A stretch of DNA of 49,592 nucleotides, taken from contig JAGGVK010000018.1 in assembly GCA_021158045.1 (NCBI GenBank), positions 1 through 49,592 on the forward strand. The letters run 5' to 3'. The position numbers were made by a program, and so were the translations under genes. The stretch is from a bacterium. GTDB taxonomy: Bacteria; Patescibacteriota; Minisyncoccia; Minisyncoccales; CG1-02-41-26. Below, piece after piece: positions 4,259-32,380 of the stretch (the stretch's first letter is position 1; each line of letters begins with the position of its first letter). Under the pieces are notes generated by a model. The model had not been told where the DNA came from. It worked only from the letters and a program-made list of their open reading frames with translations, and searched no databases.

Positions 4259-4322
4259 CAATCCAAAATTAGTAGCCGCTGGGTTGTTGGAGATTTTGAA
4301 TTTTTAGTTTATAATATATAGT

Positions 4323-11271: not shown

Positions 11272-11568
11272 CTGTTATTCTGAGCCGTTAGGCGAAGAAC
11301 CCCCATGGCAAATCTCAAATCTCAAATCTCAAAATGACATCCATTTTTTGTCATTGCGAGGAGTCCCGCTGAAGGCGGGACGACGCGGCAATCTCATTAC
11401 TTCGTCATGGAATAACTACCAATTGTCATTCTGAGCCGTTAGGCGAAGAACCCCCATGGCAAATCTCAAATCTCAAATCTCAAATCTCAAAATCACAATT
11501 CAAAGTTCAAAATTTCTTTTAATTTTAGATTTTAGATTGTTATTTTTCATTTTTCGCTTTTCATTTTT
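11272..11568. repeat. Mosaic dispersed-repeat cluster 3
   Basis: Same modules as cluster 1, plus the AT-rich module AATTCAAAGTTCAAAATTTCTTTTAATTTTAGATTTTAGATTGTTATTTTTCATTTTTC. Confidence 0.9.
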
Positions 11569-11620
11569 AATTTAATTTAGCGCCTTACTTGCGCAATTAA
11601 TTGTAATATTTGTTTTAAAA

Positions 11621-13741: not shown

Positions 13742-13887
13742 AAATTATAAAAAATTTAAATTTTGTTCGTGTTTATAGAATTCATTTATTATCCAAGCTC
13801 CGAACCCATTAAATAGTATTGCTTCTATCTTGTTGTGGATTTATTTTTACCTTTACAAATATATTACTATCTATTCAACATTTTTAA

Positions 13888-13912
13888 AAGCCCTTGTGGA
13901 AAACAAGGGCTT
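13888..13912. terminator. Bidirectional intrinsic terminator
   Basis: AAGCCCTTGT-ggaaa-ACAAGGGCTT 10-bp stem with flanking A and T runs, 25 nt after the stop of the acidic micro-ORF. Confidence 0.6.
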
Positions 13913-13936
13913 AGGTTTTTTCTTTTCTGTGGCTTC

Positions 13937-14083
13937 TTAAAATTCATCATTATTTTCTTCGTCAAAGTCTTCCTCTTCGTTTTCGTCTCCCCAAACATCT
14001 TCGCTGTTTTCTGGGAAATCTTCGGGAAAATTTTCGTCAGTATTCTCTTCTGAGTCTTCAAAAGGATTAAAATTAGCTTGCAT
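13937..14083 (-). CDS. 48-aa hyper-acidic micro-protein (candidate)
   Basis: Minus-strand ATG..TAA encodes MQANFNPFEDSEENTDENFPEDFPENSEDVWGDENEEEDFDEENNDEF and is followed by a terminator. Not in the track because it is under 60 aa. Confidence 0.35.
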   Translation of the reverse strand: MQANFNPFEDSEENTDENFPEDFPENSEDVWGDENEEEDFDEENNDEF

Positions 14084-14191
14084 AAGTTGGATTTTAAAAA
14101 ATATCTTCGGCCTTTTATCCTTTATTGAAAACCATTATATTTTTTAAAACAGCCTTGTCAAGCCCTTGCGCTTAAAAAAAATCTAAAGGGC

Positions 14192-14364
14192 GTTGCTTAG
14201 CTAAGCTAAGCAACAAGCTAAGCAACAATGACGAAAAATAACCTATGGCCAAAATTCAAATCTCAAATCTCAAATCTCAAAATCACAATTCAAAATTCAA
14301 AATTTCTTTTAATTTTAGATTTTAGATTGTTATTTTTCATTTTTCATTTTTCACTTTTCATTTG
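14192..14364. repeat. Mosaic dispersed-repeat cluster 4 (hairpin GTTGCTTAGC/GCTAAGCAAC + heptamer run + AT-rich module), left flank of the island
   Basis: Same heptamer and AT-rich composite, in the same orientation, as at 25047-25165 and 25437-25550. Confidence 0.85.
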
Positions 14365-14410
14365 ACTTAATTGCTTTTACTCCTGAATTCTAAAAGAGGG
14401 GATTTTCTCC

Positions 14411-14554
14411 AGAGAGCTGCCAGCAAGTTTTAGGATAATACGAGCATTAGCTCTTAGAAGGCGAGGAGAGAGATTGCTAACCTTCCAAACTAATGTTCGA
14501 TCTAACTTTCCAGCCATCTCCGGGGGAGGGGCTAGAACTTACTGGCAGCTCTCT
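14411..14554. ncRNA. Candidate structured RNA or MITE-like element with a 23-bp closing helix
   Basis: AGAGAGCTGCCAGCAAGTTTTAG (14411-14433) pairs with CTAGAACTTACTGGCAGCTCTCT (14532-14554), with one C/A mismatch and one G-U pair. Internal hairpins are GAGC-atta-GCTC, GAAGG..CCTTC and AGCC-au-CTCC-ggg-GGAG-g-GGCT. Confidence 0.35.
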
Positions 14555-14844
14555 AAAGAAAAGAAAACGCAGATTTTGCTAAAATAAAACCTATTTTAAT
14601 TTGACTATTTTATTTCCTCGCTGTCAAATTTTGAGATTGCGCCCGTTATCACCATTTATTACAAAATAGCACAACTATAGAGACTGCGACAGAAACAGAA
14701 AAATCATTGCTATTGAAATTCTCGATGTTTCTCCGAGACTCCCTTACCATTCAAGGCTCAATTTAAGAAAGGGGAACCTCCTGTCTTAACTGCAGAATAA
14801 CAATTAGCGTTTAATTTCAGAGAACTCTATCCGCCAATTTTATC

Positions 14845-14882
14845 GGTGATTTTTTATTTCTAATCTCCTAAATTCAGAATAA
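14845..14882 (+). repeat. Direct repeat copy 1 (GGTGATTTTTTATTTCTAATCTCCTAAATTCAGAATAA) flanking the 100-aa ORF
   Basis: Near-identical to 15376-15412. A partial third copy (GGTGATTTTTTATTTT) lies at 19370-19385. Confidence 0.8.
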
Positions 14883-15003
14883 CACATATTCCGAACTTAG
14901 GAGATAAGATTTGACATTGACTCTTAATATGATAATCTAAAATTAGACTACAATCCACCCATCACTTCCTCCTATTTTTTCGCTTCGCTTAAAATAGGCA
15001 TCT

Positions 15004-15306
15004 ATGGCAGAAGAAAATATCAAAAAAGTTTTAGAGGACTACAAAGAAGAAACTAATCGGCATTTTGATGTGGTGGCTGAGAATTTGGAAGATAAAATAA
15101 AACAAGTTGCTGAAGGAGTTACGCTTAACACAGAAAAATTACAAGAACACGATCGGAGATTTGACAAAATTGATGAAACCCTAGAAGTCATTAAAGTTGA
15201 TATTGAATTTATTAAACATGAACTTAAACAGAAAATTAATCGCGACGAATTTGCTATCTTAGAAAAAAGAGTGAGCATCCTTGAAGCAAAAGTGAATCGG
15301 CGGTAA
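15004..15306 (+). CDS. 100-aa coiled-coil protein
   Basis: Heptad-like charged sequence (EDKIKQVAEGV...FAILEKRVSILEAKVNRR). It is followed by a small hairpin CACCA-ttgt-TGGTG plus a T-run. No SD. An antisense ORF of equal length exists, so the strand is not certain. Confidence 0.5.
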   Translation: MAEENIKKVLEDYKEETNRHFDVVAENLEDKIKQVAEGVTLNTEKLQEHDRRFDKIDETLEVIKVDIEFIKHELKQKINRDEFAILEKRVSILEAKVNRR

Positions 15307-15375
15307 TAATTTACATTCCAAAAACCAAGTTTCTTATCGGGCAAAATTTTGAAGAACTTCTACTTCACCATTGTT

Positions 15376-15412
15376 GGTGATTTTTTTATTTCTAATCTCC
15401 TAAATCCGGAAT
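15376..15412 (+). repeat. Direct repeat copy 2 (GGTGATTTTTTTATTTCTAATCTCCTAAATCCGGAATA)
   Basis: See 14845-14882. Confidence 0.8.
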
Positions 15413-15511
15413 AGCTTACGGAGGCCCGACCTCCGTAAAATGGCTTTGAAGACTGAAAAAGAGGTAGAAGGAGGAAGAATAATAGTAAACTCTTACCTCC
15501 TTCCTTATGTT

Positions 15512-15883
15512 TCAATCCTCGTCCCGGCGTTTAGCCGCAGGGTCGAGGTTTTCAAACTCTAGCTTTACCGCTCTTATCCTGTGGAACTTTTTGAAGCGAT
15601 AATATCTGCTAGCTGCTTCTACTTCTGATTTCTCTTCCGGTACAATTTCCATTTCTGCCCAGAGAGGATGAACTCCCATATCGCAAATCCGAGTAATAAT
15701 TGAGAGTGGAGCCACAATTACCATTTCATCGTATCCACCCTGCTTGAATATCTTTACTACTTCTTCTGCTGAAGCAAACGGATTCGGAACCTGTTCAATT
15801 TTAATCTCTCCGAAAATCCGCCTTAACTCCCTCTCTTGACTGGGAAGCCAAGGGTGCCTGCTCATCCATAAAATTTTTTTCAC
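15512..15883 (-). CDS. 123-aa protein of unknown family (last gene of the island array)
   Basis: GTG start with GGAGGG SD 7 nt upstream. No motif recognised. Confidence 0.65.
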   Translation of the reverse strand: MKKILWMSRHPWLPSQERELRRIFGEIKIEQVPNPFASAEEVVKIFKQGGYDEMVIVAPLSIITRICDMGVHPLWAEMEIVPEEKSEVEAASRYYRFKKFHRIRAVKLEFENLDPAAKRRDED

Positions 15884-16092
15884 GGATAATCCCTCCTTAT
15901 TCTTTTTTAAAACTGCTACTGAACCGAAGTTCAGGTTTTGACTTATAATTTTACATTATAGACCAAAATCTAAACTCCAAAGATAGGTAGAAGGAGAAGA
16001 AAGATGAGTGCAACATCTTTCTCCTCCTTTTTTTTCTTTTAAAGTGCATTCGGTTTTTTATTTTTGGCTGGACCGAAAATCAGCCATTTATC
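15884..16092. repeat. Island intergenic cassette, copy A
   Basis: Shares ordered blocks with 19315-19577. These are the CTGAAC-loop-GTTCAG hairpin (15919-15934), the block GACCAAAATCTAAACTCCA, the purine/pyrimidine hairpin (15992-16027) plus T8, and a GC hairpin. Confidence 0.75.
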
Positions 16093-19000
16093 TCAATCAT
16101 CACCTCCTTCTAACTTATTTTTAAGAGCTTGGAGTATTTCTTCGGTAACTTCGCCTTCTTTCTCAGAAGGTTCAGTTACTGGGTCACTGGAATCAGCTTT
16201 CTTTTTCGCTTCTTCCAGTTTCTGCTCCAATCCCCTTATTCGTTCCGCCTCCTCAGGAAATGGAGGCTCTAAATGCACTATCACCAATTTGAACCGAGAA
16301 CCACTTATTAACTCTCGACCCAAACTGCAATAGTACATCTTCCCCTCAACCGGCTGACTTCCCCAGCGGTCAACAATGTACTTCACGGTTAATTTACCGT
16401 CTTTAGTAATTGCCTCCCACTGGTCTTCGCCAGTTTTGGGATGTTTGCCCTTGGAGAATCGAAGCCGGATATAACCTTGCTGTTGAGCAATTTTTATGTC
16501 TTCCTCGTATTCTCTTTGGGCTTGCTCCAATTCCCTTTCTGTCCGTTTCAGCTTTACTGCTTCCGGGTTCAGAATCCGCTTGAAATCCTTGAATTCCAGG
16601 GAGTCAAATATCTCTCCTTCTGTCCAGCGACTATCGTCTAAATCGTAGTCAGTAAGTAAGTAGATCTCGCCTACCTCTCTCCGGCGAGAACCACAAGAAC
16701 AACGAAGTTCAGCTACCACTTTTCCGGTATCTGTAACAATTTGAGAAAGCACTGCTGCTTCAATCGGGTATCCTTCCTCATCATATTCAGGGAACTCAAT
16801 CCTTTCCAGCTCATGACTAGCTCTACATTCACCATCATCCATTTCTTTTCCGCAAAGAGGACAATGGGAATAGTGCTTAGCAATTGCCTGTTCAACTTTC
16901 CTTGTGCATTCCGCTCGTTTCTCTAGCAGTTTCTGCAACCCTTTCGTCTTCTCCGAACCCTCGTTAACCAGCTCTAAGGCTTTTTTAAAATTCTCCTTCC
17001 TTAGAGCTGCTTCGCTTTTCCGGATAAAGTTTTGGATATTCTCTTTCTCTTTATATTTAAGAAAGGTATTATCCTCAACTTCCTCCAGAAACTTCTGAAG
17101 GTTGGAGAGCTTTTTCTCCGCTTCCATTTTCAGTCTTTCCGGCTGGCGGATCAATTCTACCAAAACTGTCTCTTCTCCAACTTGAACTTTTAACTCTCTA
17201 ATTTTCTCCTCTTCTAGCAATTGATATTCATCAGCAGAGAAAGGATATAGTATCAGTCCTATCCCCGTAGCAACTTCCTTCTGGGTTTTCATTTGAGAAA
17301 TTTTTTCTAGTTTTTGGGGTGCCAGTTTTGATCCATAGAGAAATCCATCCTTTGTCACATAAAACCATTCCCAATCTGGTCTATCTTCTATTTTCCACCG
17401 TGCTTCTTCTGGCAGAGAAGCAATTTCAGGAAGAATATCTTTCCCCATTCTCCAACTATTTCTGCTCTGCCATTTCCCACTCAACAGTTCCTTCGCCTCA
17501 TTCCGTATCTGTTTCAGTTCTTCCGGGGTTAAGAGAGAAATTGCTTTTTCTCTTTTTTCCTGACTTAAGCATTTGTAGCAGAGTTTCCGTCCAGAAATTG
17601 GGGAAACAGTCGGGTAGGTTCCAGCTTTTCCACATCCTTCGCATTTCTCCTCCTGCCGGCAGAGATTACAGCGCTTATCCTTCCCCTTTGACTCATACCG
17701 CTGGCGTCCACATTTGCACAACGGAAACCATTCCTCAATTTGCGTCCTTACAACCTTGGGAAGTTTCTCAAGAGTTGTTTCTGTTTCCACCCATTTTTCG
17801 TTCCATCCGGATTTCAAAAGAGCTGAAATTCTGATAACCCATCCTGGATCCCAAACCGGGTCCAATCTGTGATTGTAGAACTCACTGCCATCGTATCGAT
17901 AACAATTCCATTCCAACGGATTCTCTTCCGCTACTATCTCTTTCGAAACCAATTTTTCCTTTCCTGTCCGACTCCACTCCAGACCATCTTTGTTATACTT
18001 TACTTTCTGTTTCTCTTCGCAAAGAAACTTCTTCTTGATGATCTGGACTTTCACTCCGGCTTCTGAAAGAACAACTTTGTATTCTTGTCGTTCCTCCGGA
18101 ACCTCTCGAGTCTCAAGTTTTACTTCTCTTGATCCGAGAGATTTTTCCGTACCATCATACTCAATGCGAACTGTACTAATTTCAACCGTATCCGTGTCCT
18201 CAGTCTCCGTTATCTGTTCTCTATATTTCGGTCCTGCTGGAATCGCACGCAGCCCCCTTCCCCGTTTAGCCAGAAATACCCGATAGGTTTTGCCTTTTTC
18301 AGGTTTCCAGCCATCTTGGGGAAAAACCGGCTTCCGTTCGTGCCAGGCAATAAGCCGCTCTTCCTTTTCAGTTGAACGACGCTCATCGCATTCAAAAGAA
18401 ACCTCATCAATTTCCATTAACTCGGCTTCCTCCGAACTCGGCTGGCCAAACCGGCCCTCTTTATCAACCGACTGGCAATGGAGAGTGTAAACTCTCATAC
18501 ACTCTTTTGAAAAAGCATCCATTGCCGTTTGAAAAGTTGCTTCGTCTTGATACTCAAATGGACGAAGCGACTTTCTAACTATAACTACCCCATGACGGAT
18601 TTCGTAATCATAGCCATACTGCCGGTCAATTTCTGCCTCTGGGAGAACCGAGGTCAACTCTTGCGCCAAGAAAGCCCGGATTCTATCCCCCCCATTGATG
18701 TGACCAGATTTAAGCTGGTCTTCACAATGAAGGAGAGTTAATCGACGGACTTCCTTTTCCACATCTGCCCAGGCCTGCTTCCAGTTTTCTTCAGAAGTAA
18801 ATTCCGTCTCAGCCAGGTGCCGCGTCAATTCCAATTCCTGTCCTTTGTGAGTCCGGTATTCAAAACCGCTCTGCCACTTGACCGTTGGGTCAATTACTTT
18901 GCCGAGCTTAACCTTTAGAGTTGGGCAAAGCGATCTGCCCCCATAATGTGTCAGTTCGAATATCACATCTGTAGTCGCCTCAAGAATATCCTTAATCTCA

Positions 19001-19314
19001 GCCATTCCATTTACAACCCGAACACCTTTTCCAGTTGTTACCCGCAGAACTGCTGCCAGAGCATGGGCCTTAAAGAACTCCACAGCAGATTTTACATTTT
19101 CCGCTTTCAGAGTTTTCCTTCCCTTTCTTTCTCCACCCACGATAAAGAAATACATTGGGTGGATGATTTGACAGTCCGATTCCAGTTCACCAATATCCTC
19201 CACCTCATTCTCCAGCCTGAAACCGTAACCGGTCAGGCCTTTGAAAAAGGTGGCTGCTGGCAATGACCTATAAAGGTCAATTGCCTCTTTCAATCCCTTA
19301 CGCACTTTTTCCAT
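16093..19314 (-). CDS. 1073-aa protein of unknown family with two zinc-ribbon clusters and coiled-coil segments
   Basis: AGGAGG SD 6 nt upstream of the ATG. Cys clusters are CKC..CNLC..CEGC..CYKC (aa 533-582) and HCPLC..C..H..CSC (aa 817-874). Acidic C-terminal tail. Confidence 0.85.
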   Translation of the reverse strand: MEKVRKGLKEAIDLYRSLPAATFFKGLTGYGFRLENEVEDIGELESDCQIIHPMYFFIVGGERKGRKTLKAENVKSAVEFFKAHALAAVLRVTTGKGVRVVNGMAEIKDILEATTDVIFELTHYGGRSLCPTLKVKLGKVIDPTVKWQSGFEYRTHKGQELELTRHLAETEFTSEENWKQAWADVEKEVRRLTLLHCEDQLKSGHINGGDRIRAFLAQELTSVLPEAEIDRQYGYDYEIRHGVVIVRKSLRPFEYQDEATFQTAMDAFSKECMRVYTLHCQSVDKEGRFGQPSSEEAELMEIDEVSFECDERRSTEKEERLIAWHERKPVFPQDGWKPEKGKTYRVFLAKRGRGLRAIPAGPKYREQITETEDTDTVEISTVRIEYDGTEKSLGSREVKLETREVPEERQEYKVVLSEAGVKVQIIKKKFLCEEKQKVKYNKDGLEWSRTGKEKLVSKEIVAEENPLEWNCYRYDGSEFYNHRLDPVWDPGWVIRISALLKSGWNEKWVETETTLEKLPKVVRTQIEEWFPLCKCGRQRYESKGKDKRCNLCRQEEKCEGCGKAGTYPTVSPISGRKLCYKCLSQEKREKAISLLTPEELKQIRNEAKELLSGKWQSRNSWRMGKDILPEIASLPEEARWKIEDRPDWEWFYVTKDGFLYGSKLAPQKLEKISQMKTQKEVATGIGLILYPFSADEYQLLEEEKIRELKVQVGEETVLVELIRQPERLKMEAEKKLSNLQKFLEEVEDNTFLKYKEKENIQNFIRKSEAALRKENFKKALELVNEGSEKTKGLQKLLEKRAECTRKVEQAIAKHYSHCPLCGKEMDDGECRASHELERIEFPEYDEEGYPIEAAVLSQIVTDTGKVVAELRCSCGSRRREVGEIYLLTDYDLDDSRWTEGEIFDSLEFKDFKRILNPEAVKLKRTERELEQAQREYEEDIKIAQQQGYIRLRFSKGKHPKTGEDQWEAITKDGKLTVKYIVDRWGSQPVEGKMYYCSLGRELISGSRFKLVIVHLEPPFPEEAERIRGLEQKLEEAKKKADSSDPVTEPSEKEGEVTEEILQALKNKLEGGDD

Positions 19315-19577
19315 CTTTTCCCTCCTTTCCCGAAATTCGGGATTGCTCGTCTGTGCCAGACGGACAAAAGGTGATTTTTTATTTTTTAAAGTGCCTTCTG
19401 AACCTGAAGTTCAGGTTTTAGGCTATGTTTTTTACAGACCAAAATCTGAATTCCAGGAAAATTTGGTTAGAGGGAGAAGAAAGTGCAAGCTCTTCTCCCT
19501 CTTTTATTTTTATTTTACGAGTGCGGCCCTTTTGTTTTTTACGGCCAGCCAAGGGCAATGCTGGCTAACCGGTTCGG
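19315..19577. repeat. Island intergenic cassette, copy B
   Basis: CTGAAC-ctgaa-GTTCAG (19398-19414), the block GACCAAAATCTGAATTCCA, a 12-bp perfect hairpin AGAGGGAGAAGA/TCTTCTCCCTCT (19469-19502) plus a T-rich tail, and the hairpin CCAGC..GCTGG. Confidence 0.75.
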
Positions 19578-21182
19578 TCAGACTTTACCAAAGACCTCAC
19601 CGGCTTCCTCCGAGTTCAGCTCCGAGACCAGAACAATCTCATCGCTGAACTCTTTTGCTGCCGCACGACTCGAGCTACCAACGTCAACAAGAACTGTCAC
19701 TACTTGAACTTCTTCTTTCCTCTTGAATTCCTGAAACTGCTCTCGAAACGAATCCGACACCGCGCATTCCCCATCGGTCACAAAACAGATATCAGCCCGC
19801 GGTAACTTTCCGGACTCCACAATTTCTTGTGCTTTCCCGAGTGGTTTTTCAAAATCCGTACCGCCACCCAGAAAGAATTCTGCCATCTGAATCAGTTTCT
19901 TGTAATTCGCTTCTCCTGTGCGAATCCAAAACTCCTTTATCGGGTCATCTCTGCTTCCGAACATCAGGTAGACGAAGTCGCGTCGTTTTGACTTGGAAAC
20001 TTGCCACAATCCAAGTGCCACCGCTTTCGCCCAAATCTCTTTCGCGCCTTCCATTGAGCCAGAATTATCAATTCCTACGATAATCGGTCCCTCACCCAGT
20101 TTCTCCTTCCGCTCCACTTCGTATTGCAACAACTGCTGATTAGCGAATTTCCGCAAGAATTCCATTTTCAGTACAGGATGAGCTAAGAATTGCATTTCTG
20201 AAGGAATAACCTTATCCAAGTCATTTCCCCGACGAACATTGACTACCATTCCAGCTGGAGCTTGGATTTTCTCTTTCTGTCGCGCAATTGCGAGCCGTCT
20301 GAACTTCCCTAAGAGTTTGGAAATCTGTTTTAGTTTTGAAGACGATTCCAGTTTCTTTTTCAATTCCAGTTTCTGTTCATAATCCAGTTTCTGTATTTCA
20401 CCCGGTTCTACTCCCCAGGATTCCAACATTTCACTCGTTTCCTTCGCATTCTCCGCTGCTTCTTTTGCTGCTTTCCGCATTCCTCTCCGGAACTGTTCCG
20501 AATTCTGCTGTAAGTCCTGTTCCAGTCCATCTGCCATCTGTTCCAACTGCTGTTTTGCCTCATCAAGCGTCATTTGGGCTTGAGAGGTCTGTTGTCCGAG
20601 AGAATTCGCCTGCTGTTGCATCTGTTGTGCCTGTTGCTGCAGCTGTTGAGCTTGAGTTCCAGTTGCAGTCTGCGCCTGTTGTTGTAAGTCATCTGCCTGT
20701 CCCTGCGCTGCTTCTGCTTGCTGTTGCAAATCCTGTGTCTGCTGCTGCAACTGCTGGCTCTTCTGCTCTTGTTGCTGTAGCTGCTGAATTTTCTGTTTTG
20801 TCTCTTCTGGAATCAGTTCCAACGCTACTGGTCCGAGGGTAAGAGTTGCCATCGCAGAACCAAATTCGTCCAGTTCAGTATACTGCCGTAACTCTGGATA
20901 CTGCTTCGTGGCCAATAACTTTTCCATCAGCATCCGATTAACCCGTCGCGAAGGAACCACTGCCCCTGCTTTCCGCAGTTGGGGATCCGCTTTGTAGAGC
21001 GCTGAGTAGATATCTTGTATCAAATCCGAAAATACCGGTAGAGTTTGAATTCCATTTCGTTCCATTTCCACCAACTTTTCCGACTTCTGTTTCAACTGGG
21101 AAAATGCTGCCCGATCATATCTGTCACAGCGGATTGCCCAAGGGAATTGCTGGATTTCTTCCTCTCTTCTTTTCATTTTCAT
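19578..21182 (-). CDS. ViaA-like von Willebrand factor A (vWA) protein with a Gln-rich central insert
   Basis: C-terminal vWA with an intact MIDAS (IVGIDNSGSM ... GGGTDF ... FVTDGE). The linker QQLLQYEV preceding the vWA resembles ViaA KQLLTYRL. The GGAGG SD overlaps the end of the upstream AAA+ gene. Confidence 0.85.
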   Translation of the reverse strand: MKMKRREEEIQQFPWAIRCDRYDRAAFSQLKQKSEKLVEMERNGIQTLPVFSDLIQDIYSALYKADPQLRKAGAVVPSRRVNRMLMEKLLATKQYPELRQYTELDEFGSAMATLTLGPVALELIPEETKQKIQQLQQQEQKSQQLQQQTQDLQQQAEAAQGQADDLQQQAQTATGTQAQQLQQQAQQMQQQANSLGQQTSQAQMTLDEAKQQLEQMADGLEQDLQQNSEQFRRGMRKAAKEAAENAKETSEMLESWGVEPGEIQKLDYEQKLELKKKLESSSKLKQISKLLGKFRRLAIARQKEKIQAPAGMVVNVRRGNDLDKVIPSEMQFLAHPVLKMEFLRKFANQQLLQYEVERKEKLGEGPIIVGIDNSGSMEGAKEIWAKAVALGLWQVSKSKRRDFVYLMFGSRDDPIKEFWIRTGEANYKKLIQMAEFFLGGGTDFEKPLGKAQEIVESGKLPRADICFVTDGECAVSDSFREQFQEFKRKEEVQVVTVLVDVGSSSRAAAKEFSDEIVLVSELNSEEAGEVFGKV

Positions 21183-21194
21183 CTTCCGCCTCCT

Positions 21195-22364
21195 TTAGAG
21201 TTCAATCCCAAGGCATTCTTTAACCACATCCCGGAGGTACCGTTCCACCGCATCCTTCACATCCTCAATTTTCCCAGTAGGTGCACCAGCCCGCTTCGCC
21301 TCATCCAGAAGATTTACCACATTCGTTCGGATGTTTTTGAGTTTTGCATTTGCCTCAGTTCCTAATTTGGATTTTCTGCTCTCATCCTGTTCACCGAGTG
21401 CCTCATCACGGATTTCCGTTGCTGTATCCAGAAGTTCTTGAGCCCGAAGTGCTAAAGGATTTGCCACCTCCAATACGACATCCCTGACTTTCCGAATATC
21501 CTTTTGCTCATCCCACAAGCAGTGCTGAAGCATCAGCAGGTCTTCCTCTTCCACTTTCTGCCTGTCTTCCAGTAACGCGTGCGCTTGCAATACTAGGTTC
21601 AGTCGGACATCCCTACGGCCATAGACAACAATCCCTTGGTCATAGAGTTTTTCAATAATTTCCTCTACTTTTTCGTCTATGGTTTCCGGGACTTCAACTT
21701 CCACCACCTGCTGTTGCAACTGTTGGAGTTCTGTAAGAGAAATTTTGGGAGCATCGAACTTTCCTTTCGGATCGCCTTTCCTCCGCAGATACGATAACTG
21801 CCTCATCCGAATCCTTTCGGACTTTTCCTTTATCCGTCCTACTACGAATCGGAACATAAACCGGTCGTAGAACGCCTCCAAATCTTCTTCTGGAGCATTG
21901 TTCGTTGCCCCGAAAAGAGAAATTAGAGGGCAGTCCAGTTGGCGTCCTTTTAGTGTCCATTTCCGTTCGTTAATCAACAGCAATAAAGCGTTCAAGGTAG
22001 CCGGATTGCAACGGAAGATTTCCTCCAATACGGCAATGTGTGCCTGCTGGAGCATTCCTTCGCCGCGTGGAGTAATCTCAATCCTTTTTCTGCCGTCACC
22101 GAGATCCTGTTCAACATAGTCCCTATCCGAAACGAACAAGTCATCTGGAACAGTGTCCTGTGCGAGTAGGTGTTTGAAGTAGGTCACTCCATCCAAGGTC
22201 CGGCACAGCAGCTCTATCAACATACTTTTCGCTTCCCCCGGAGGGCCAAATAATATGCCGTGCTGCTTTGACAGCAAAGCACATATTAGCCCCCGGATGA
22301 CTTCCTTTCTTCCTACCAAGAGACGGTTCAGTTCCGTCTCTATTCTCTTCATTTTTTCAATCAT
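21195..22364 (-). CDS. RavA/MoxR-family AAA+ ATPase
   Basis: Walker A GPPGEAKS, Walker B IAVLEEIF, sensor GATN, DRFMFR. The LLMLQHCLWDEQKD segment parallels RavA LILLKDCLWYDAQS. I prefer the ATG at 22364 (AAGGAGG 5 nt upstream) over the track start at 22391. Confidence 0.9.
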   Translation of the reverse strand: MIEKMKRIETELNRLLVGRKEVIRGLICALLSKQHGILFGPPGEAKSMLIELLCRTLDGVTYFKHLLAQDTVPDDLFVSDRDYVEQDLGDGRKRIEITPRGEGMLQQAHIAVLEEIFRCNPATLNALLLLINERKWTLKGRQLDCPLISLFGATNNAPEEDLEAFYDRFMFRFVVGRIKEKSERIRMRQLSYLRRKGDPKGKFDAPKISLTELQQLQQQVVEVEVPETIDEKVEEIIEKLYDQGIVVYGRRDVRLNLVLQAHALLEDRQKVEEEDLLMLQHCLWDEQKDIRKVRDVVLEVANPLALRAQELLDTATEIRDEALGEQDESRKSKLGTEANAKLKNIRTNVVNLLDEAKRAGAPTGKIEDVKDAVERYLRDVVKECLGIEL

Positions 22365-22500
22365 TCTTTCCTCCTTTCCGGCATCTTTCATCTTTGCCGG
22401 TTCTCATTTTTTTAAGGTTCCTCTCTGATAACCCAGAGAGAATACTGAGGGCAAAATTTTCGTCCCCAATATTCTCCCAAGGTTTCTTATAAAAAAGAGA

Positions 22501-22537
22501 AGAGAGTAGGAGTAGAGTTGCATTGCCCCTACCCTCT
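22501..22537 (-). terminator. Bidirectional hairpin terminator after csx3
   Basis: AGAGAGTAGG / CCTACCCTCT stem with one mismatch. A6 lies upstream and T6 downstream on the + strand, which gives a U6 tail on the minus strand too. Confidence 0.55.
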
Positions 22538-22547
22538 TTTTTCGGTA

Positions 22548-22865
22548 CTAATCGATTAAGTCACCGGGGCGGTACTTATCGCCGTGAGAAACGGCGACAA
22601 CATACCTTCCCAGTTTGGGGTCAAACACCGCCACCACCTCGTAGAGGTGGACCACCGCGTGCCCAATCGCGATGGCAACTGGGAGACTCGCCGGCCCGTT
22701 TATCTTAATCAGGGAGCCGCCGGCAAGCTCACCTGATTTGACCATCTCGTCCAGACGCGCAACCGCGTCACGGACGATTTGGTCATTTTGAGCCGGGTCG
22801 CCAAACCCGACCCTCAACACATCGCCCTCTTCGAGGGTAATGTGATAAGTTTTTTCTTTAGCCAT
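22548..22865 (-). CDS. csx3: Csx3-family protein (CRISPR-associated cA4 ring nuclease, Crn3 type), orphan
   Basis: LIKINGPASLPVAIAIGHAVVHLYEVVAVFDPKLGRYVVAVSHGDKYRPGDLID matches my recollection of the A. fulgidus Csx3 core (VVISGRGPIWLHCFLAHKYHHTPFVAVYDPRLGAVVVQSHSELREGDVID). AAGGAGGG SD before the ATG at 22865. Confidence 0.7.
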   Translation of the reverse strand: MAKEKTYHITLEEGDVLRVGFGDPAQNDQIVRDAVARLDEMVKSGELAGGSLIKINGPASLPVAIAIGHAVVHLYEVVAVFDPKLGRYVVAVSHGDKYRPGDLID

Positions 22866-22992
22866 TTTTACCCTCCTTATGTTCACCCAGAATAAAATGG
22901 CAAATTCTGGACTAAGGGATTGTTAGTTTAAGCCTCTTTTTCAGCCCCCTATGGTTTATTTTTACATCGTCTCCAATCGACGATGGGCAAAA

Positions 22993-23586
22993 TTACTTTT
23001 CCTCGGCGGTTGCCATCCGCACGAGGAATTGGGCAAGTGCGACCACACAGGGTCGCTGGCTCACATCCTCACCTCTTTCAAGGTAATGGATGGAGCCTCT
23101 AAAGATACCGTCCTTGCCCACACCATGAACGGTATCTTCCTGGCCATGATAATCGCTGAAAATTTCAGCGATTATCTTTAACCCGAGTTCTGAACAAAAC
23201 GCTCTCCACTCGGGTACCTTATCCATGTCACCAGCCAGGATGATGGCATGGGTGGCGGTTTTGCAAATTTTTTTATTTTCCACTGATGGAATACCGCCAA
23301 TATCCACCAGAGTGAGCGGGAGTTGACAGTTGACGACTGAGTCTGCCACCCGCTTGACAAACTCAGGAGAAAACCCACTTAAGGAGGCCTTATATTCCTC
23401 CTTTAAGCGGCGGGCTTCCTCGGGCGACCGGTTTGCAGTCTCTTGAAACCAGGCGCCCTCGCCGTCCGGGCACGCCGTAATTACGTAGGGATACGGCGCC
23501 CCCGGAATTCTTTTGATTGCCTGCTTCAATCCCTCTCGCAGGCAACTCTTCCCGCTACGTGGCGGGCCACAGAGCACAATTTTCAT
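22993..23586 (-). CDS. 197-aa P-loop NTPase, operonic with csx3
   Basis: Walker A GPPRSGKS at the N-terminus. Walker B/DxxG LTLVDIGG. GGAGGTG SD 8 nt upstream. Confidence 0.75.
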   Translation of the reverse strand: MKIVLCGPPRSGKSCLREGLKQAIKRIPGAPYPYVITACPDGEGAWFQETANRSPEEARRLKEEYKASLSGFSPEFVKRVADSVVNCQLPLTLVDIGGIPSVENKKICKTATHAIILAGDMDKVPEWRAFCSELGLKIIAEIFSDYHGQEDTVHGVGKDGIFRGSIHYLERGEDVSQRPCVVALAQFLVRMATAEEK

Positions 23587-24136
23587 TGTGCTCTCACCTC
23601 CTTTGCCCGCCTGCGCGGGCTTTTTTTATTCTCCTTTTTTTTAGCAAGGAGTGCACCGTGCACTTTCAACCAATCGCTTACTTTTGGACAGCAAGTGTTG
23701 GCTGGCGCGTCCGCCAATGAAAGTGCACGGGCGCACTCATTACTAAGGTTGAGAGAGGTGGAGGCAACCGAAACTGACCTTCCATCTCCTCGATGTGATA
23801 GGTTAACCTCAGTTGTATCTCACTTTTTACCCCTGATTGTCACAAAACCTGTATTTTAAAGAGCTAATTCTCTCCTCTTGGGAGAAGGATAGAGAAGAAC
23901 ATTTTTATCTGTTTGATGTAGATGATTGTTTGGCTGGCTAACAAACAGTCAGGATAGCCTAATTCGAGCCTTATTCTCCCTCCTCTATCCTTCTCCCCTG
24001 AACCAATCTTTGCTCTAGTTCAGCAGGAGGAAGAGGTTATTTATATTGTTAAAAGGGCTAAATAATAGGCGACTCTCAGAGAGAGTCGCCTATTGCAGCA
24101 TTTCTACAATTTCGCTCTCTCCTCGAAACTTGATAA
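23587..24136 (-). promoter_or_regulatory. ~550-nt structured leader or ncRNA region between the tandem promoters and the P-loop gene
   Basis: No credible ORF. It holds a 13-bp hairpin (24064-24094), a CTGAAC..GTTCAG hairpin (23998-24023) and a 15-bp long-range stem (23880-23894 / 23983-23997). It also holds two AGTGCAC-type palindromes (23650-23664, 23722-23737) and the GC hairpin GCCCGC-ctgc-GCGGGC (23605-23620). Confidence 0.5.
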
Positions 24137-24142
24137 TATTTA

Positions 24143-24302
24143 ATTGTAGTATATTTTCGGGATTTTGTCAAGGTATTCTCTATATGTCTGTCCTTTTTCT
24201 AAGTACCTCTATTATAATACATTCAAATTTCCTTGTCAATAGTTTATTTTTATTTCTCTTCTAAAGCACTCTGATTATAGCATATTTAATTTTGTTTGTC
24301 AA
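24143..24302 (-). promoter_or_regulatory. Three tandem near-consensus sigma70 promoters reading leftward
   Basis: On the minus strand: TTGACA(24302-24297)-17nt-TATAAT(24279-24274), TTGACA(24239-24234)-17nt-TATAAT(24216-24211) and TTGACA(24171-24166)-17nt-TACAAT(24148-24143). Confidence 0.55.
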
Positions 24303-24540
24303 TAGTTCCTGCCTATTACTTTTTCATTTTTCTTACCTGTCTATTTTCCCAATCTTTCTCTCAAGAGACTCTTTAAAAGAATTTGATAGATTCTTAGAAG
24401 TAATAGAATAGAGAGCAAGTAATTCTTCTTACTCAAAACTAAAATAAACGGCTGATGACAGTTAGTTGTTGCTCAGTCTTGATTAGGCTTATTTGGCAAT
24501 TTTGGACTGTCCTTAGGAGGGAAAGTTGATTGTATATATA

Positions 24541-24570
24541 AAAAACCGCTTGTTGAGCGCAAACAAGCGG
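24541..24570 (-). terminator. Intrinsic terminator of the small membrane-protein gene
   Basis: On the minus strand, CCGCTTGTT-tgcgctc-AACAAGCGG followed by TTTTT, 15 nt after the stop. Confidence 0.75.
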
Positions 24571-24584
24571 TAATGAATTTTCTG

Positions 24585-24776
24585 CTACTTTTCTGCTGCT
24601 TCTATAGAAGCAGCAGAAAAAATTACAAATAAAATTACTATAGCAGCCCCCATACCGAGAACTGTCTTCCAGGCCATCGGCATTGTGCTGTTTCTTAACA
24701 GCACAAGGCCACAACCTGTACTGTATCCTATCCCCAAGATTACTACCCTGAGGATAATTCTTTTTAAAAAGCTCAT
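24585..24776 (-). CDS. 63-aa two-TM small membrane protein
   Basis: ATG at 24776 is preceded by AAGGAGGTGGG. Sequence MSFLKRIILRVVILGIGYSTGCGLVLL...TVLGMGAAIVILFVIFSAASI. It has its own promoter and terminator. The track start at 24785 is a GTG inside the SD. Confidence 0.55.
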   Translation of the reverse strand: MSFLKRIILRVVILGIGYSTGCGLVLLRNSTMPMAWKTVLGMGAAIVILFVIFSAASIEAAEK

Positions 24777-24800
24777 TTTTCCCACCTCCTTTCGTTCTTC

Positions 24801-24830
24801 ATTATAGCATGTTTATAATATTCTTGTCAA
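24801..24830 (-). promoter_or_regulatory. Consensus sigma70 promoter for the small membrane-protein gene
   Basis: On the minus strand, TTGACA(24830-24825)-18nt-TATAAT(24806-24801). The sequence is paralogous to the three tandem promoters. Confidence 0.6.
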
Positions 24831-24875
24831 GAGGCTGGTTCTTTCATTTTAAGACATAGAGTATATAACCAATGA

Positions 24876-25550
24876 CCAAAATCTCAAATCTCAAATCTCA
24901 AATCTCAAAATGACATCTCAAAATGCAAAATTAGAAAATTCAAAATGCAAATTTAGAAAAGCAAAATCTCAAATCTCAAAATGACCCTGAAGCAGAACAA
25001 GTTCGCTACAGGGCAGGCAGTATTGCTTACCCTGGGTAAGCAATAGGAATCTCAAACCTCAAATCTCAAATCTCAAAATGACAATTCAAAGTTCAAAATT
25101 TCTTTTAATTTTAGATTTTAGATTGTTATTTTTCATTTTTCACTTTTCATTTTTAATTTTTCATTGCCTTGCGAGGAGTCCTGCTGAAGGCGGGACGACG
25201 CGGCAATCTCAGGATTGCAGTAATAGGAGGAAGGGATTGCTTCGTCAGTCGCTTCGCTCCTTCCTCGCAATGACAGGGGAATGGAATCGTTTCACTCAGG
25301 ATGACAGTGAGGATAAAATAAAAAAGACAAGGACTTTTTAAATGACGAAACCCGAATGACGAATGACGAAAAAATGTTATCAACGAGACCCGGACTCGTT
25401 GTCGTTCTGAGCCGTTAGGCGAAGAATCCCAGCCAAAATGCAAATCTCAAATCTCAAATCTCAAAATGACAATTCAAAGTTCAAAATTTCTTTTAATTTT
25501 AGATTTTAGATTGTTATTTTTCATTTTTCACTTTTCATTTTTCATTTTTT
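24876..25550. repeat. Mosaic dispersed-repeat cluster 5 (largest), right flank of the island
   Basis: All module types are present. The heptamer and AT-rich composite occurs twice (25047-25165, 25437-25550). The GAAGCGACTGACGAAGCAATC module is in inverted orientation at 25235-25275. Confidence 0.9.
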
Positions 25551-25552
25551 TG

Positions 25553-26077
25553 CTACCTTACGAAAAGTCCTGCTCTCTTAGAGGGCTTTATTGAGTTTGA
25601 GCAATATATAGCAATTGCTAAAGCGTCGGCAGCATCGTCAGGTTTAGGAATTTTATCTAAATCCAACAAATCTTTTATCATCTTTTGTATTTGTTGCTTT
25701 TCTGCTCTCCCGTAACCGCAAATGCCCATTTTAACTTCAAGAGGCGTGAATTGTTGGATTTTAATTTTTTTTCTTGCTGCTGCCAGAAGAATTACACCTC
25801 GGGCTTCGCTTACTGGCATAGCTGTTTTTAAGTTTTTGAAGAAATAAAGCTTTTCAATTGCCATTACTTTTGGTTTGTACTTTCTTAATAGCTTTAAAAT
25901 TTCAAAGTGCAGTTTCTTTAACCTTTCTTCTGGTTTTAAAGAAGGATTAGTTTTAATAACGCCGTATCCTAAACACTCCAGTGAATTTTTTTCGCTTTTT
26001 GTTTTTCTTTTTTTAATCTTTCTTATTACGCCAAATCCAGTAGTGGCTGTGCCTGGGTCAATACCTAAAATGGTCAT
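25553..26077 (-). CDS. ruvC: Holliday junction resolvase RuvC
   Basis: MTILGIDPGTATTGFGVI N-terminus and the C-terminal DAADALAIAI motif. Confidence 0.9.
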   Translation of the reverse strand: MTILGIDPGTATTGFGVIRKIKKRKTKSEKNSLECLGYGVIKTNPSLKPEERLKKLHFEILKLLRKYKPKVMAIEKLYFFKNLKTAMPVSEARGVILLAAARKKIKIQQFTPLEVKMGICGYGRAEKQQIQKMIKDLLDLDKIPKPDDAADALAIAIYCSNSIKPSKRAGLFVR

Positions 26078-26118
26078 AATTTAGTTAAGAGTTGCAGTGG
26101 GAACTGGGAATTTTCAAT

Positions 26119-26853
26119 TCAACTTACCAAGTTTGAGTAAATGTCTTGAACAGCGTCATTTTCATCAAGTTCCTCAAAGAGTTTTTCTAAGCTGATTTTG
26201 TCTTTTTCCGATACCTCAATTTCTTGGTTCGGAACCCAATCTAAAGAGGCTGATTTAATTTTTATGCCTTGAGATTTAAGATTTTCTTTAACTTTCTCTA
26301 ATTCTTCTGGTTTTGTGTAAACATCTAAAAGATTGCTATTTTTCTGCTGCCAAATATCTTCAGCTCCTGCTTCAATTGCTTTTAATTCTAAATCTTCTTT
26401 ACTTTTTTCAGGATTTTCGCCAGAGAATTCAATGGTAATAACTCCCTTTCTCTTAAATTGCCATTTAAGGGAACCTGACTGGGTAAGTTTTCCACCGTGC
26501 TTTTGCAATATCTGTTTTATTTCTAACAAGGTGCGGTTTTTGTTGTCGGTTATGGCTTCAATAATAATGGCTACTCCTCCTGGTCCTAAAGCTTCATAAC
26601 TTGCCTCTGTTAGTTTTTTTCCTTCAATTTCTCCTGTTCCTCTCTTAATTGCTTTTTCAATATTATCTTTTGGCAAATTAAAACTTTTAGCTTCTTCTAA
26701 AGCTTGCCTAAGTTTTGGGTTTGTGTCAGGATTTGCTCCTTCTTTTGCCGCAATTGTGATTTGGCGAGCAAGTTTGGAAAATATTTTGCCTCTTTTTTGG
26801 TCCTCTAAGGACTTTTTGTGCTTAATGCCTGCCCAATGCGAATGTCCGCTCAT
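26119..26853 (-). CDS. yebC: YebC/PmpR-family transcriptional regulator
   Basis: MSGHSHWAGIKHKK N-terminus, diagnostic of the family. Confidence 0.9.
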   Translation of the reverse strand: MSGHSHWAGIKHKKSLEDQKRGKIFSKLARQITIAAKEGANPDTNPKLRQALEEAKSFNLPKDNIEKAIKRGTGEIEGKKLTEASYEALGPGGVAIIIEAITDNKNRTLLEIKQILQKHGGKLTQSGSLKWQFKRKGVITIEFSGENPEKSKEDLELKAIEAGAEDIWQQKNSNLLDVYTKPEELEKVKENLKSQGIKIKSASLDWVPNQEIEVSEKDKISLEKLFEELDENDAVQDIYSNLVS

Positions 26854-27036
26854 AGGTTTAAATAGAATTAAAAATTAAAAACTAAAAACTAAAAGTATAA
26901 AATAAAGTTTTTGTTTTGGTTTTCATTTTTTGAATTAAATACCTGTTATTACACCTTAGCCTAAAAGTTTTTTAAAATCAATATTGGTTTAATATTGGTT
27001 CAATGAAGTTGGGTTTATTTTTAGCAGATTCTCTCC

Positions 27037-28275
27037 TTATGCATTTACCCGTTTTTTGATAATTAAGACAACAATTCCAGAACCTATAGCAATGCTTACA
27101 GCCATAAAAAAGGTTATTAGTGGGTGCTGATTTCCTTTTTTAAATTCTTGGTTTATATTTTTGTTAATATTTGCCAGTGCGGTTTTATTAGAGATGGTTT
27201 TTTTGTTGGCTATTGCTTTTTCATTCAGTGCTTTAGATTTTTTAGAACTTGCCGAAAGCATTGAGCCTTTAACTTTTATTTGCTCAGTAACATTTTCCCT
27301 CCCAGGGGTTAAGGTTTGGCTCCACTGCCAACCTTTTTGTGTGAGATTATATGATTGATTTAGAAGCGCTTTTTTATAAGTGACTTTGTTTATGATATTT
27401 CCGTTTGGCTGAATAAGTTTTAAGGTATCGCCGCTATTTTGTAAAGTAATTTTTGAAGTGGGTCGGCGGAGAACTAAAAAACCTTTGGCTTGAATTTTTG
27501 CCCCTTTCGGAAATGAGTAAGTTGTTATTGTTCCAACTACATCCTGAATTTTCCAGCCGGACAAATCAACTTCAAAATTATTTTCATTGAAAATTTCAAT
27601 CCATTCATTTTGGGCATCAGAACCTTTTGGGGAGGGTAAAATTTCGTTAATGAAAATATTTTTGGGATAAACTATCGGTTCCGGTTTTGCTTTTTGTTCT
27701 GGCTCTGGCTTTATTTTAACTGGACTGTTTTTATCTCTTGGCGTTCCCCCTGGACTCTGGCTGGTTTGCCAATTTTTGAGTTCTGACCCAAGAGCCAAAG
27801 GGCAAATCCTTTCCATTGTTTTCTTTGGTTTTTGGTTATTGCCAGCGGGCCATTTTTGGTTAACTGCTTCAGGGGTAGCATCAATAATATCTCCGGCTTT
27901 GTTTTTCAAAACAAGCTTACCATTTTTATCATATTTGTTGTGGAGCGATAATTTACTCTCTACCAAGTCGCAGTTGCCGATTTCTTTCCGGCAAATTAAA
28001 AAATACCCATAAGCGGGTATTTTGCCAGCAGAAATTTCTAAAGTGTTGTTCTTGACTCCGGCATTTTCAATTTCCCAGCCAGAAATATCAACTTCTTTGT
28101 TTGCTGGATTATAAAGCTCAATCCACTCTTCATTAGAAGAAACTTTTGTTCCCATCCAGGCTATTTCATTAATAACTACATTTGGGTTGTAAGCAAAAGA
28201 AATAAACGGTTCAGAACTCAAACCCAGAAGCAAAATAAAAAAAATTAGCCGAGTTATAATCATTATATTTTGCAA
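27037..28275 (-). CDS. Secreted protein with two lamin-tail domains (LTD) and a C-terminal TM anchor
   Basis: Two copies of the NEI..WIE(L/I)(Y/F)N...(D/V)(I/L)SGW(E/K)I pattern. N-terminal signal and C-terminal hydrophobic helix. Confidence 0.75.
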   Translation of the reverse strand: MQNIMIITRLIFFILLLGLSSEPFISFAYNPNVVINEIAWMGTKVSSNEEWIELYNPANKEVDISGWEIENAGVKNNTLEISAGKIPAYGYFLICRKEIGNCDLVESKLSLHNKYDKNGKLVLKNKAGDIIDATPEAVNQKWPAGNNQKPKKTMERICPLALGSELKNWQTSQSPGGTPRDKNSPVKIKPEPEQKAKPEPIVYPKNIFINEILPSPKGSDAQNEWIEIFNENNFEVDLSGWKIQDVVGTITTYSFPKGAKIQAKGFLVLRRPTSKITLQNSGDTLKLIQPNGNIINKVTYKKALLNQSYNLTQKGWQWSQTLTPGRENVTEQIKVKGSMLSASSKKSKALNEKAIANKKTISNKTALANINKNINQEFKKGNQHPLITFFMAVSIAIGSGIVVLIIKKRVNA

Positions 28276-28293
28276 CTATCTTTAGAAAATAGT

Positions 28294-29295: not shown

Positions 29296-29323
29296 TTTTA
29301 AATTAATATATTACAATATAAGC

Positions 29324-29441
29324 TAGCCCGAAACTAATTTGGGATTTTTCTTTGGAATGGATAATTAAGCTTTGGCTTAATTACTCCCCGGGAAAATTCT
29401 AACTTTAAAGCAACTTTGAGGCAATAATTAGTTTCGGGCTA
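29324..29441. other. 118-nt structured inverted-repeat element between gspE-like and ruvB
   Basis: Perfect 16-bp closing stem TAGCCCGAAACTAATT (29324-29339) / AATTAGTTTCGGGCTA (29426-29441). Internal 9-bp hairpin TAATTAAGC-tttg-GCTTAATTA. The 3' arm overlaps the TAG stop of the upstream gene. Confidence 0.5.
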
Positions 29442-30740: not shown

Positions 30741-30744
30741 AAGT

Positions 30745-31815: not shown

Positions 31816-31872
31816 TTTGTTTTAACGCTAATTAGATTGTAGATTATACAAAACTACCTCAAAATCAGTTCA

Positions 31873-32370: not shown

Positions 32371-32380
32371 TTTTTATTTT

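Follow-up and report, generated by a model that had tools for sequence, protein, structure and literature searches.

The stretch of DNA considered here (49,592 nt of contig JAGGVK010000018.1, referred to as the window) carries, between ruvC and the PBP1A gene, a block of approximately 9.5-10.5 kb that was inserted by horizontal transfer. In this island, host-type promoters are combined with non-host translation signals. We believe that the island is probably a horizontally acquired, mobile and presumably defensive MoxR-vWA (von Willebrand factor A) ternary system of a new subtype. The host is a Parcubacteria-like member of Patescibacteria (the candidate phyla radiation, CPR); the best named relatives of its RuvB, 69-77% identical, are Patescibacteria group bacteria, Ca. 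Nealsonbacteria, Pacebacteria and Gribaldobacteria. The ORFs of the window identified outside the island are housekeeping genes. A sequence-only reading had placed the island at 14366-24875.

The cargo is one long operon on the minus strand plus a separately transcribed gene of a 63-aa membrane protein. All island genes led by a Shine-Dalgarno (SD) sequence lie on the minus strand, those of the operon in the order P-loop AAA, Csx3, MoxR, vWA, a 1,073-aa protein and a 123-aa protein. The first gene (22993-23586) encodes a 197-aa P-loop NTPase that corresponds to the AAA half of AAA-Csx3 proteins; it matches the PADLOC models PDLC01045 (1.6e-59) and C3a67 AAA-Csx3 (8e-35) and has the Walker A motif GPPRSGKS. 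The second (22548-22865) encodes a 105-aa protein with the Csx3/Crn3 domain, which is recognised by PF09620 (24.5 bits at a cut-off of 21) and by the PADLOC model Csx3-AAA (5e-27), while its NCBIfam score is under the cut-off of that family. Relatives carry the two fused in the same order (AAA-Csx3). Residues H57, H60, D69, R71 and H80 of Csx3 are absolutely conserved and required for the cleavage of cyclic tetraadenylate, cA4 (PMC7371418). Relative to the A. fulgidus Csx3, four of the five (H57, H60, D69, H80) are kept in the island protein and R71 is replaced by K (alignment to 6yud/3wzi); the alignment to 6yud/6vjg is weak, E = 0.04-0.06. A catalytically active Csx3/Crn3 is plausible here, outside any CRISPR context.

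The third gene (21195-22364; the SD-led start is at 22364 and that of the longest ORF at 22391) encodes a MoxR-type AAA+ ATPase of the bpMoxR family (PF20030, 2e-33), which also matches RavA of NCBIfam (6e-36) and contains AAA_5 and AAA_lid_8. Its Walker A motif is GPPGEAKS, with GPxGEAKS in its clade and GPPGTAKS in the next relatives; the variant P-loop GxxGxAKS / GxxxTAKS has been noted for the MoxR of the ternary systems with FtsH and a beta-propeller (PMC7159879). The sensor-1 region reads TNN instead of SNE. Only 12 nt separate this gene from the adjacent gene of a 534-aa vWA protein (19578-21182), for which the VWA_CoxE match in Pfam is weak and the ViaA match is 4e-18. The N-terminal part of this protein is helical and includes a Gln-rich coiled coil, and the metal ion-dependent adhesion site, MIDAS, of its C-terminal vWA domain is intact (DNSGS...T...D; consensus DxSxS...T...D). 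The protein shows no repeat or propeller match, and its last residue, 534, comes immediately after the vWA domain.

The next gene (16093-19314) encodes the third component, a 1,073-aa protein of a novel family, for which no Pfam, PHROG, NCBIfam or PADLOC match was obtained; Pfam searches with 11 members of the family at E <= 1 produced no consistent assignment. Its N-terminal domain (about 1-465) is conserved and beta-rich; then come a Cys4 cluster of the zinc-ribbon type at about 519-585, a region of helices and, in the C-terminal part, additional Cys motifs. In the AlphaFold model the mean pLDDT is 72, with 80-90 in the N-terminal domain, and there is no P-loop. According to the Pfam searches with the 11 members and to the beta-rich zinc-ribbon model, the third component is not a VMAP, an inactive STAND NTPase or FtsH. 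Foldseek gave weak matches to LEF-3, HIN domains and urate oxidase, which we take for no more than leads. The family comprises 11 clusters among 5.8 billion proteins, all of them from metagenomes. In an exhaustive profile search of 1.84 billion representatives, about 25 proteins had the N-terminal domain, and approximately 120 others had the middle and C-terminal part. Profile positions of about 640-975, which are helical and contain zinc motifs, recur at the C-terminus of 1,300-1,600-aa helicases: P0209 (on locus L107) and P0267 carry DEAD, Helicase_C and HA2, and P0241 has a weak DEAD match alone. This module, which DEAH-type helicases also possess, hints weakly at nucleic acid as the possible ligand.

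The last gene of the operon (15512-15883, with an AGGAGG SD) encodes a 123-aa protein that has no Pfam match and a single weak PHROG match (phrog_31280, E 0.0018); it is 47% identical to the product of a gene in the Saccharibacteria cassette described below. PDB sequence searches with this protein and with the P-loop AAA protein returned nothing useful. The monocistronic unit (24545-24830, minus strand) consists of a perfect promoter (24830-24801), an SD, the gene of the 63-aa membrane protein (24776-24585) and an intrinsic terminator (24571-24545).

Between the operon promoters and the first gene there is a 554-nt highly structured leader (23587-24140, minus strand). Its minimum free energy is -213.8 kcal/mol against -147.3 +/- 6.3 kcal/mol in shuffled sequences (z = -10.5; z = -7.6 for the antisense), and it has no Rfam match. 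Three homologous hairpin modules on the same strand come after the vWA gene (copy 3, a structured spacer at 19315-19577, z = -6.1), after the 1,073-aa gene (copy 2, a structured spacer at 15884-16092, z = -5.0) and after the 123-aa gene (copy 1, 15307-15511, likely the terminator region of the operon); they emerged from the alignment of the three copies and include the repeat families D7 and D13. In each module, a purine-rich SD-like arm (GGAGGAGAAAGATG) pairs with a pyrimidine-rich arm; the arm sequences vary among the three copies and the pairing is kept in each. The intergenic regions of related cassettes in other genomes are also highly structured (z = -4 to -14). The structured spacers at L014 2079-2522, L020 3011-3296, L018 1-490 and L023 5524-6468, together with the leader in the window, fall in the range from -8 to -14. 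The spacers recur within a locus and no primary sequence is common to different loci, so that a covariance model of the leader could not be built. Such spacers may be processing or attenuation elements.

The contrast between the island and the surrounding DNA was first noticed in composition and translation signals, and both parts of that claim are borne out. In 1-kb windows the G+C content is 0.42-0.52 over approximately 15.5-24 kb against 0.28-0.41 elsewhere; in genes it is 0.41-0.55 in the island against 0.29-0.41 in the backbone (0.29 in dnaN), and at third codon positions (GC3) 0.39-0.64 against 0.23-0.39. The tetranucleotide correlation to the backbone is 0.78 for the island versus at least 0.98 for 20 backbone windows of equal size, and the excess of G over C on the coding strand is much stronger in the island than in the neighbouring backbone genes of the same orientation. 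The SD scan (GGAGG, a start codon 4-10 nt on, an ORF of at least 50 codons) recovered exactly the seven starts listed in the sequence-only reading: 15883, 19314, 21182, 22364, 22865, 23586 and 24776, i.e., all seven SD-led genes of the island. In the 40-kb backbone it found two sites only, both within genes; none of the 36 backbone gene starts has a GGAGG-type SD, and one (7872) has a weaker AGGAG.

A metagenome scan with the PBP1A protein yielded 80 related loci (PBP1A 49-58% identical, 1.04 Mb in total), some of them on contigs of 650-800 kb. They contain 16 GGAGG-led ORF starts (0.15 per 10 kb), as against 7 per 9.5 kb in the island. The promoters give the opposite answer. The island has minus-strand promoters that agree with the consensus at 12 of 12 positions at 24830, 24302 and 24239 and at 11 of 12 at 24171; the last three form a tandem of sigma-70 promoters in a partly duplicated unit (24143-24302; promoter scan, repeat family D6). 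Perfect TTGACA-N16-18-TATAAT sites are frequent in the relatives, where 100 of them were counted (about 1 per 10 kb) against approximately 2 expected by our estimate from base composition, and a fifth perfect promoter (TTGACA-N16-TATAAT) is found in the backbone of the window at 14161. The island promoters are therefore of the host type, and consensus promoters were rejected as a foreign mark. Thus, of the earlier statement that the expression signals are alien to the host, the part on translation stands and the part on promoters does not, although the four near-perfect promoters are indeed present. Directly downstream of the 14161 promoter lies an extremely acidic, D/E-rich ORF of 48 aa (13937-14083, minus strand) with no family match.

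By composition and SD use, the core of the island extends over approximately 15,307-24,860; the overall G+C content of 15340-24860 is 0.449 against 0.354 in the backbone. Within this core the promoter segment 24141-24860 is AT-rich and host-like (G+C 0.34). The left kilobase of the initially proposed interval (14366-15340) is host-like as well, with G+C 0.33 (also 0.33 for 13742-15339) and no SD. This kilobase consists of an AT-rich non-coding stretch of host-like G+C (14366-15003), whose membership in the island is uncertain, and a plus-strand ORF of a 100-aa coiled-coil protein (15004-15306) convergent with the operon (GC 0.33, GC3 0.27, no SD), for which no homologue was found in the related cassettes or related genomes. 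The stretch contains an inverted repeat with 31-nt arms (14403-14433 / 14532-14562) and a hairpin with 23-nt arms (14859-14909); a 32-nt direct repeat (14850-14881 / 15382-15413) flanks only the 100-aa ORF.

The sequence-only reading had noted that a repeat composite flanks the island in direct orientation. Copies are indeed present in direct orientation at both edges (14248-14363 and 24865-25159), but they are not specific to the island. The left copy (14192-14364) is composed of a hairpin, CAAATCT heptamers and a TTTTCAT run and belongs to the host, and the repeat search resolved the right one (24865-25165) into a partial copy and a full copy with the hairpin 25021-25045. A further copy at 25432-25547 adjoins ruvC. 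In total, the host repeat occupies five spacers (3840-4260, 11280-11573, 14192-14364, 24865-25165 and 25432-25547), all copies have one orientation, and most are found directly downstream of minus-strand genes; five sites occur within 22 kb. The repeat was therefore rejected as an attachment site of the island, considering its presence in unrelated spacers: it is a general intergenic repeat of the host rather than an island terminus.

The insertion itself is supported by the related loci. According to tblastn with the window proteins, the gene order T2SSE-RuvB-(LTD)-YebC-RuvC-PBP1A-dnaN-dnaA is strictly conserved in them. Both genes are present in 65 loci, where the distance from ruvC to PBP1A is between -9 and 1,623 nt (median 485); the corresponding distance in the window amounts to 11,811 nt. 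None of the island genes was found by the same tblastn in any of the 80 loci. The adjacency of ruvC and PBP1A in island-free relatives, which the sequence-only reading had proposed to check, supports insertion into a short variable spacer and, together with homologous cassettes in other Patescibacteria chromosomes, the proposal of horizontal acquisition. A contig with the empty ruvC-PBP1A site from the same population was looked for and not found.

No integrase or transposase was detected by Pfam, PHROG or NCBIfam in any ORF of at least 40 aa, and the small ORFs of the island spacers and flanks, searched by Pfam for decayed genes of this kind, gave no match. ARAGORN found no tRNA or tmRNA in the island; there is no tRNA or Rfam match within 13.7-25.6 kb apart from two chance matches to microRNA models, which were the only ones obtained in the island at the Rfam gathering and E-value thresholds. 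These scans agree with the initial impression that such genes and targets are missing.

Two observations concern the host lineage at large. In one related CPR genome (locus L053, 4493-6077), two SD-led accessory genes, those of a DUF4037 protein and of an NDK-NUDIX fusion, occupy the place that RuvB should have within the conserved block; SD sites may be a frequent feature of accessory genes inserted in this lineage. In the window, the cumulative GC skew has its minimum near 31 kb, together with a switch of the gene strand (30745-31815 on the minus strand, 31873-32370 on the plus strand), approximately 22 kb away from dnaA-dnaN (8.4-11.2 kb); the replication origin may not adjoin dnaA.

A sharp change of composition between repeat copies could also be produced by assembly, i.e., by joining the DNA of a second, SD-using organism to a CPR contig through the shared repeat. 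Contigs from the same samples do stop inside the host repeats (L004, L008, L009, L010), although repeats are expected to break assemblies. Besides, contig L005 leads from the left end of the island through the host repeat to a 93% copy of window 25169-25376 (L005 9959-10167). This continuation is probably another repeat-bearing spacer; it could stem from a different locus with this repeat, from a variant strain or from recombination between copies of the repeat. On the other hand, the exact island proteins are encoded on contigs of separate assemblies (JGI 3300016457, ENA ERZ23499535 and ERZ23499514, Logan SRR14000035). A single 28.5-kb JGI contig, whose fetched part L001 corresponds to window 13859-32391, crosses the whole island together with its right junction and the left copy of the repeat, and L002 and L003, from the separate ENA and JGI assemblies, join the island to PBP1A; all three match the window at 99.9-100% identity. 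The composition shifts at approximately 15.3 kb and 24.1-24.9 kb, on the left not at the repeat, and it is of the host kind in the promoter segment as well as in the left kilobase. Finally, homologous cassettes with the same contrast lie inside other Patescibacteria chromosomal contigs (206 kb and 42 kb) and several metagenome contigs, all of which would have to be chimeras, so that a recurring artefact is very unlikely. The suggested chimeric join is not borne out, and we regard it as extremely improbable.

The conserved core of the island was found in about nine other loci (L014-L023), at least two of them in Patescibacteria. Its genes follow the order P-loop AAA (usually as the AAA-Csx3 fusion), MoxR, vWA and the large protein or its N-terminal domain alone; the arrangement is seen in L014-L016, L017, L018-L019, L020 and L021, the accessory genes vary, and each related cassette encodes the 1,073-aa protein or its N-terminal domain downstream of vWA. 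Among 185,579 species genomes, cassette matches occur in two, a Patescibacteria group metagenome-assembled genome (206-kb contig) and a Ca. Saccharibacteria one; the nearest named MoxR, with 50% identity, is that of a Parcubacteria group bacterium. Where the flanks are long enough, the cassette genes of most loci are AGGAGG/GGAGG-led and have higher GC and GC3 than the largely SD-less flanks; L017 shows a weaker contrast, as do L022 and L023 on one of their flanks. The relationships of the genes are mosaic: the closest relatives of the AAA protein and of the 123-aa protein of the island (61% and 47%, respectively) belong to the Saccharibacteria cassette L023, while MoxR and vWA are about 50% identical to those of L014/L018/L020/L022 and 25-31% identical to those of L023. 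Module mosaicism is typical of conflict systems. We conclude that the cassette family is rare, shuffled and found mainly in CPR genomes.

These data bear on another explanation, according to which the island is an old resident cluster that was lost from all sampled relatives and whose composition and SD sites answer its own expression needs. The promoters of the host type would fit it; besides, the SD and G+C contrast persists at 30-50% protein identity between cassettes, which argues for maintenance over mere recency. However, the cluster is missing from all 80 related loci despite the strictly conserved order of the flanking genes, its mosaic relationships cannot fit one host tree, and the family is extremely rare and patchy (11 protein clusters and two species genomes in the collections given above). 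We consider long residence very improbable.

The persistence of the contrast can possibly be attributed to repeated recent arrival from an SD-using pool or to maintenance by selection. It is tempting to go further and to propose that the SD sites, the raised G+C and the structured spacers are maintained traits of a translationally insulated cassette that circulates mainly in CPR, with the 1,073-aa protein defining a fifth ternary subtype and with Csx3 signalling without CRISPR; we put this forward as a doubtful, though attractive, possibility. If it is true, SD-paired initiation could uncouple the expression of the cassette from host translation or let it be switched independently, e.g., during infection or ribosome remodelling.

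As concerns function, the main rival to a defensive role is a phage-derived chaperone module. In this alternative, the island is a remnant or cargo of a phage or episome, and the MoxR-vWA pair is an assembly chaperone for its own large protein, in parallel with tail assembly in an archaeal virus or with the pair in Bacillus phage 0305phi8-36. The only strong PHROG matches in the island are those of vWA (phrog_24053, 2e-88) and MoxR (phrog_19600, 7e-66). Full-length homologues of both, encoded adjacently or nearly so, are present in Moorella phage MTATph1 and Bacillus phage 0305phi8-36 (gp63/gp66), with vWA identities of 39% and 31%, respectively. Both phages have SD-using Firmicutes as their hosts, with which the SD sites would agree, and one related cassette lies 1.2 kb from the gene of a large serine recombinase. 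Against this, Pfam, PHROG and small-ORF scans found no capsid, portal, terminase, tail, replication or integrase gene in the island, and the 1,073-aa protein was found neither by tblastn against 50,697 phage records nor by a pattern scan of IMG/VR. In addition, the cassette always contains the Csx3-associated P-loop protein and usually Csx3 too, and the two together are a hallmark of immune signalling modules. We consider this alternative unlikely.

We presume that the most likely role of the cassette is defence against phages or other mobile elements. The mechanism that we have in mind is modelled on the MoxR-vWA ternary conflict systems (PMC7159879). The MIDAS site of the vWA protein would hold a peptide of the third, 1,073-aa protein, and the MoxR ring would remodel or release that protein in a nucleotide-dependent manner, which would flip the system on or off. 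The third protein would be a sensor or scaffold, possibly one that binds nucleic acid, as its zinc ribbons and the C-terminal module shared with DEAH helicases suggest. Csx3/Crn3, as an effector or off-switch, would cleave a cyclic oligoadenylate signal or trim RNA.

Several points weigh against this interpretation. The defensive role is drawn from the analogy with the published systems (PMC7159879) and from the PADLOC matches, which are limited to Csx3 and AAA; a link between the cassette and defence is known neither from experiment nor from a characterised homologue. The window contains no cyclase, Cas10 or CRISPR array that would account for cyclic oligoadenylate. The Walker B aspartate of MoxR is replaced, by E here (LEEIF) and by R in 15 relatives (LREIF/LRELF; P0025-P0039), while the next bpMoxR relatives have LDEIF/LDEVF; ATP hydrolysis may thus be altered or lost. 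The Foldseek search with the model of the 1,073-aa protein gave no match at E <= 0.001 in PDB or BFVD. The closest viral homologues of the MoxR-vWA pair belong to large Firmicute phages, in which a chaperone or assembly role of the pair is equally possible. No recombinase, tRNA target or clear element-specific terminal repeat that would point to a mechanism of transfer accompanies the island. One distant cassette (L017) comes from a genome that uses SD sites in part and has a set of biosynthetic genes; CPR bacteria are thus not strictly the only carriers of the family.

If the island is a defensive ternary system, it extends these conflict systems by a third component and a host range that are both new and would place a catalytically plausible Csx3/Crn3 outside the CRISPR context. 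CPR bacteria, with genomes of roughly 0.6-1 Mb, are thought to possess few defence systems; here a single acquired system would take up more than 1% of the genome. Irrespective of function, the SD-led cassettes in SD-poor hosts are a natural test case for whether the ribosomes of an SD-poor lineage use SD sites at all, and in what way, and they bear on whether mobile genes retain their own translation signals. For genome curation, a sharp switch of composition and signals in a CPR contig is not necessarily a binning or assembly error.

The island resembles classical genomic islands in its absence from the syntenic site of relatives, in its deviant G+C content, third codon positions and oligonucleotides, and in its accessory cargo; it differs from them in having no integrase or tRNA target and no evident element-specific direct repeats. 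With the enterobacterial RavA-ViaA it shares the two-gene chaperone pair (the NCBIfam matches RavA, 6e-36, and ViaA, 4e-18), but the scores of the island proteins are far under the equivalog cut-offs. The Firmicute-phage pairs (0305phi8-36 gp66/gp63 and MTATph1) are similar through vWA, 31-39% identical over most of its length. In contrast to the island, neither RavA-ViaA nor the phage pairs include the 1,073-aa protein and the Csx3 module.

Csx3/Crn3 and Csx3-AAA of type III CRISPR-Cas are resembled in the aligned residues H57, H60, D69 and H80 and in the partner P-loop "AAA" domain, which is often fused to Csx3 (PDLC01045, PDLC01059). Unlike them, the island has two separate genes, each with its own SD, and the replacement of R71 by K; the window has no cas gene, cyclase or CRISPR array, and the partner is a MoxR-vWA pair instead of a type III effector.

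The closest likeness in organisation is to the MoxR-vWA ternary systems described by Kaur, Burroughs, Iyer and Aravind (2020, eLife 9:e52696; PMC7159879): adjacent MoxR and vWA genes and a conserved large third protein in one operon, a long helical N-terminus of the vWA protein and shuffled accessory modules. The PF20030 match (2e-33) and the GxxGxAKS P-loop of the island MoxR are shared with the beta-propeller/FtsH subtypes, and Csx3 was reported as an effector domain in one VMAP system (PMC7159879). The differences are that the island has no beta-propeller after vWA and no FtsH, VMAP or iSTAND (inactive STAND), that the Walker B aspartate of its MoxR is replaced, and that it adds an undescribed family of the third protein and a constant partner in the form of separate P-loop AAA and Csx3. 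The systems of Kaur et al. are concentrated in multicellular lineages, whereas the named carriers of the cassette are minimal, non-multicellular Patescibacteria.

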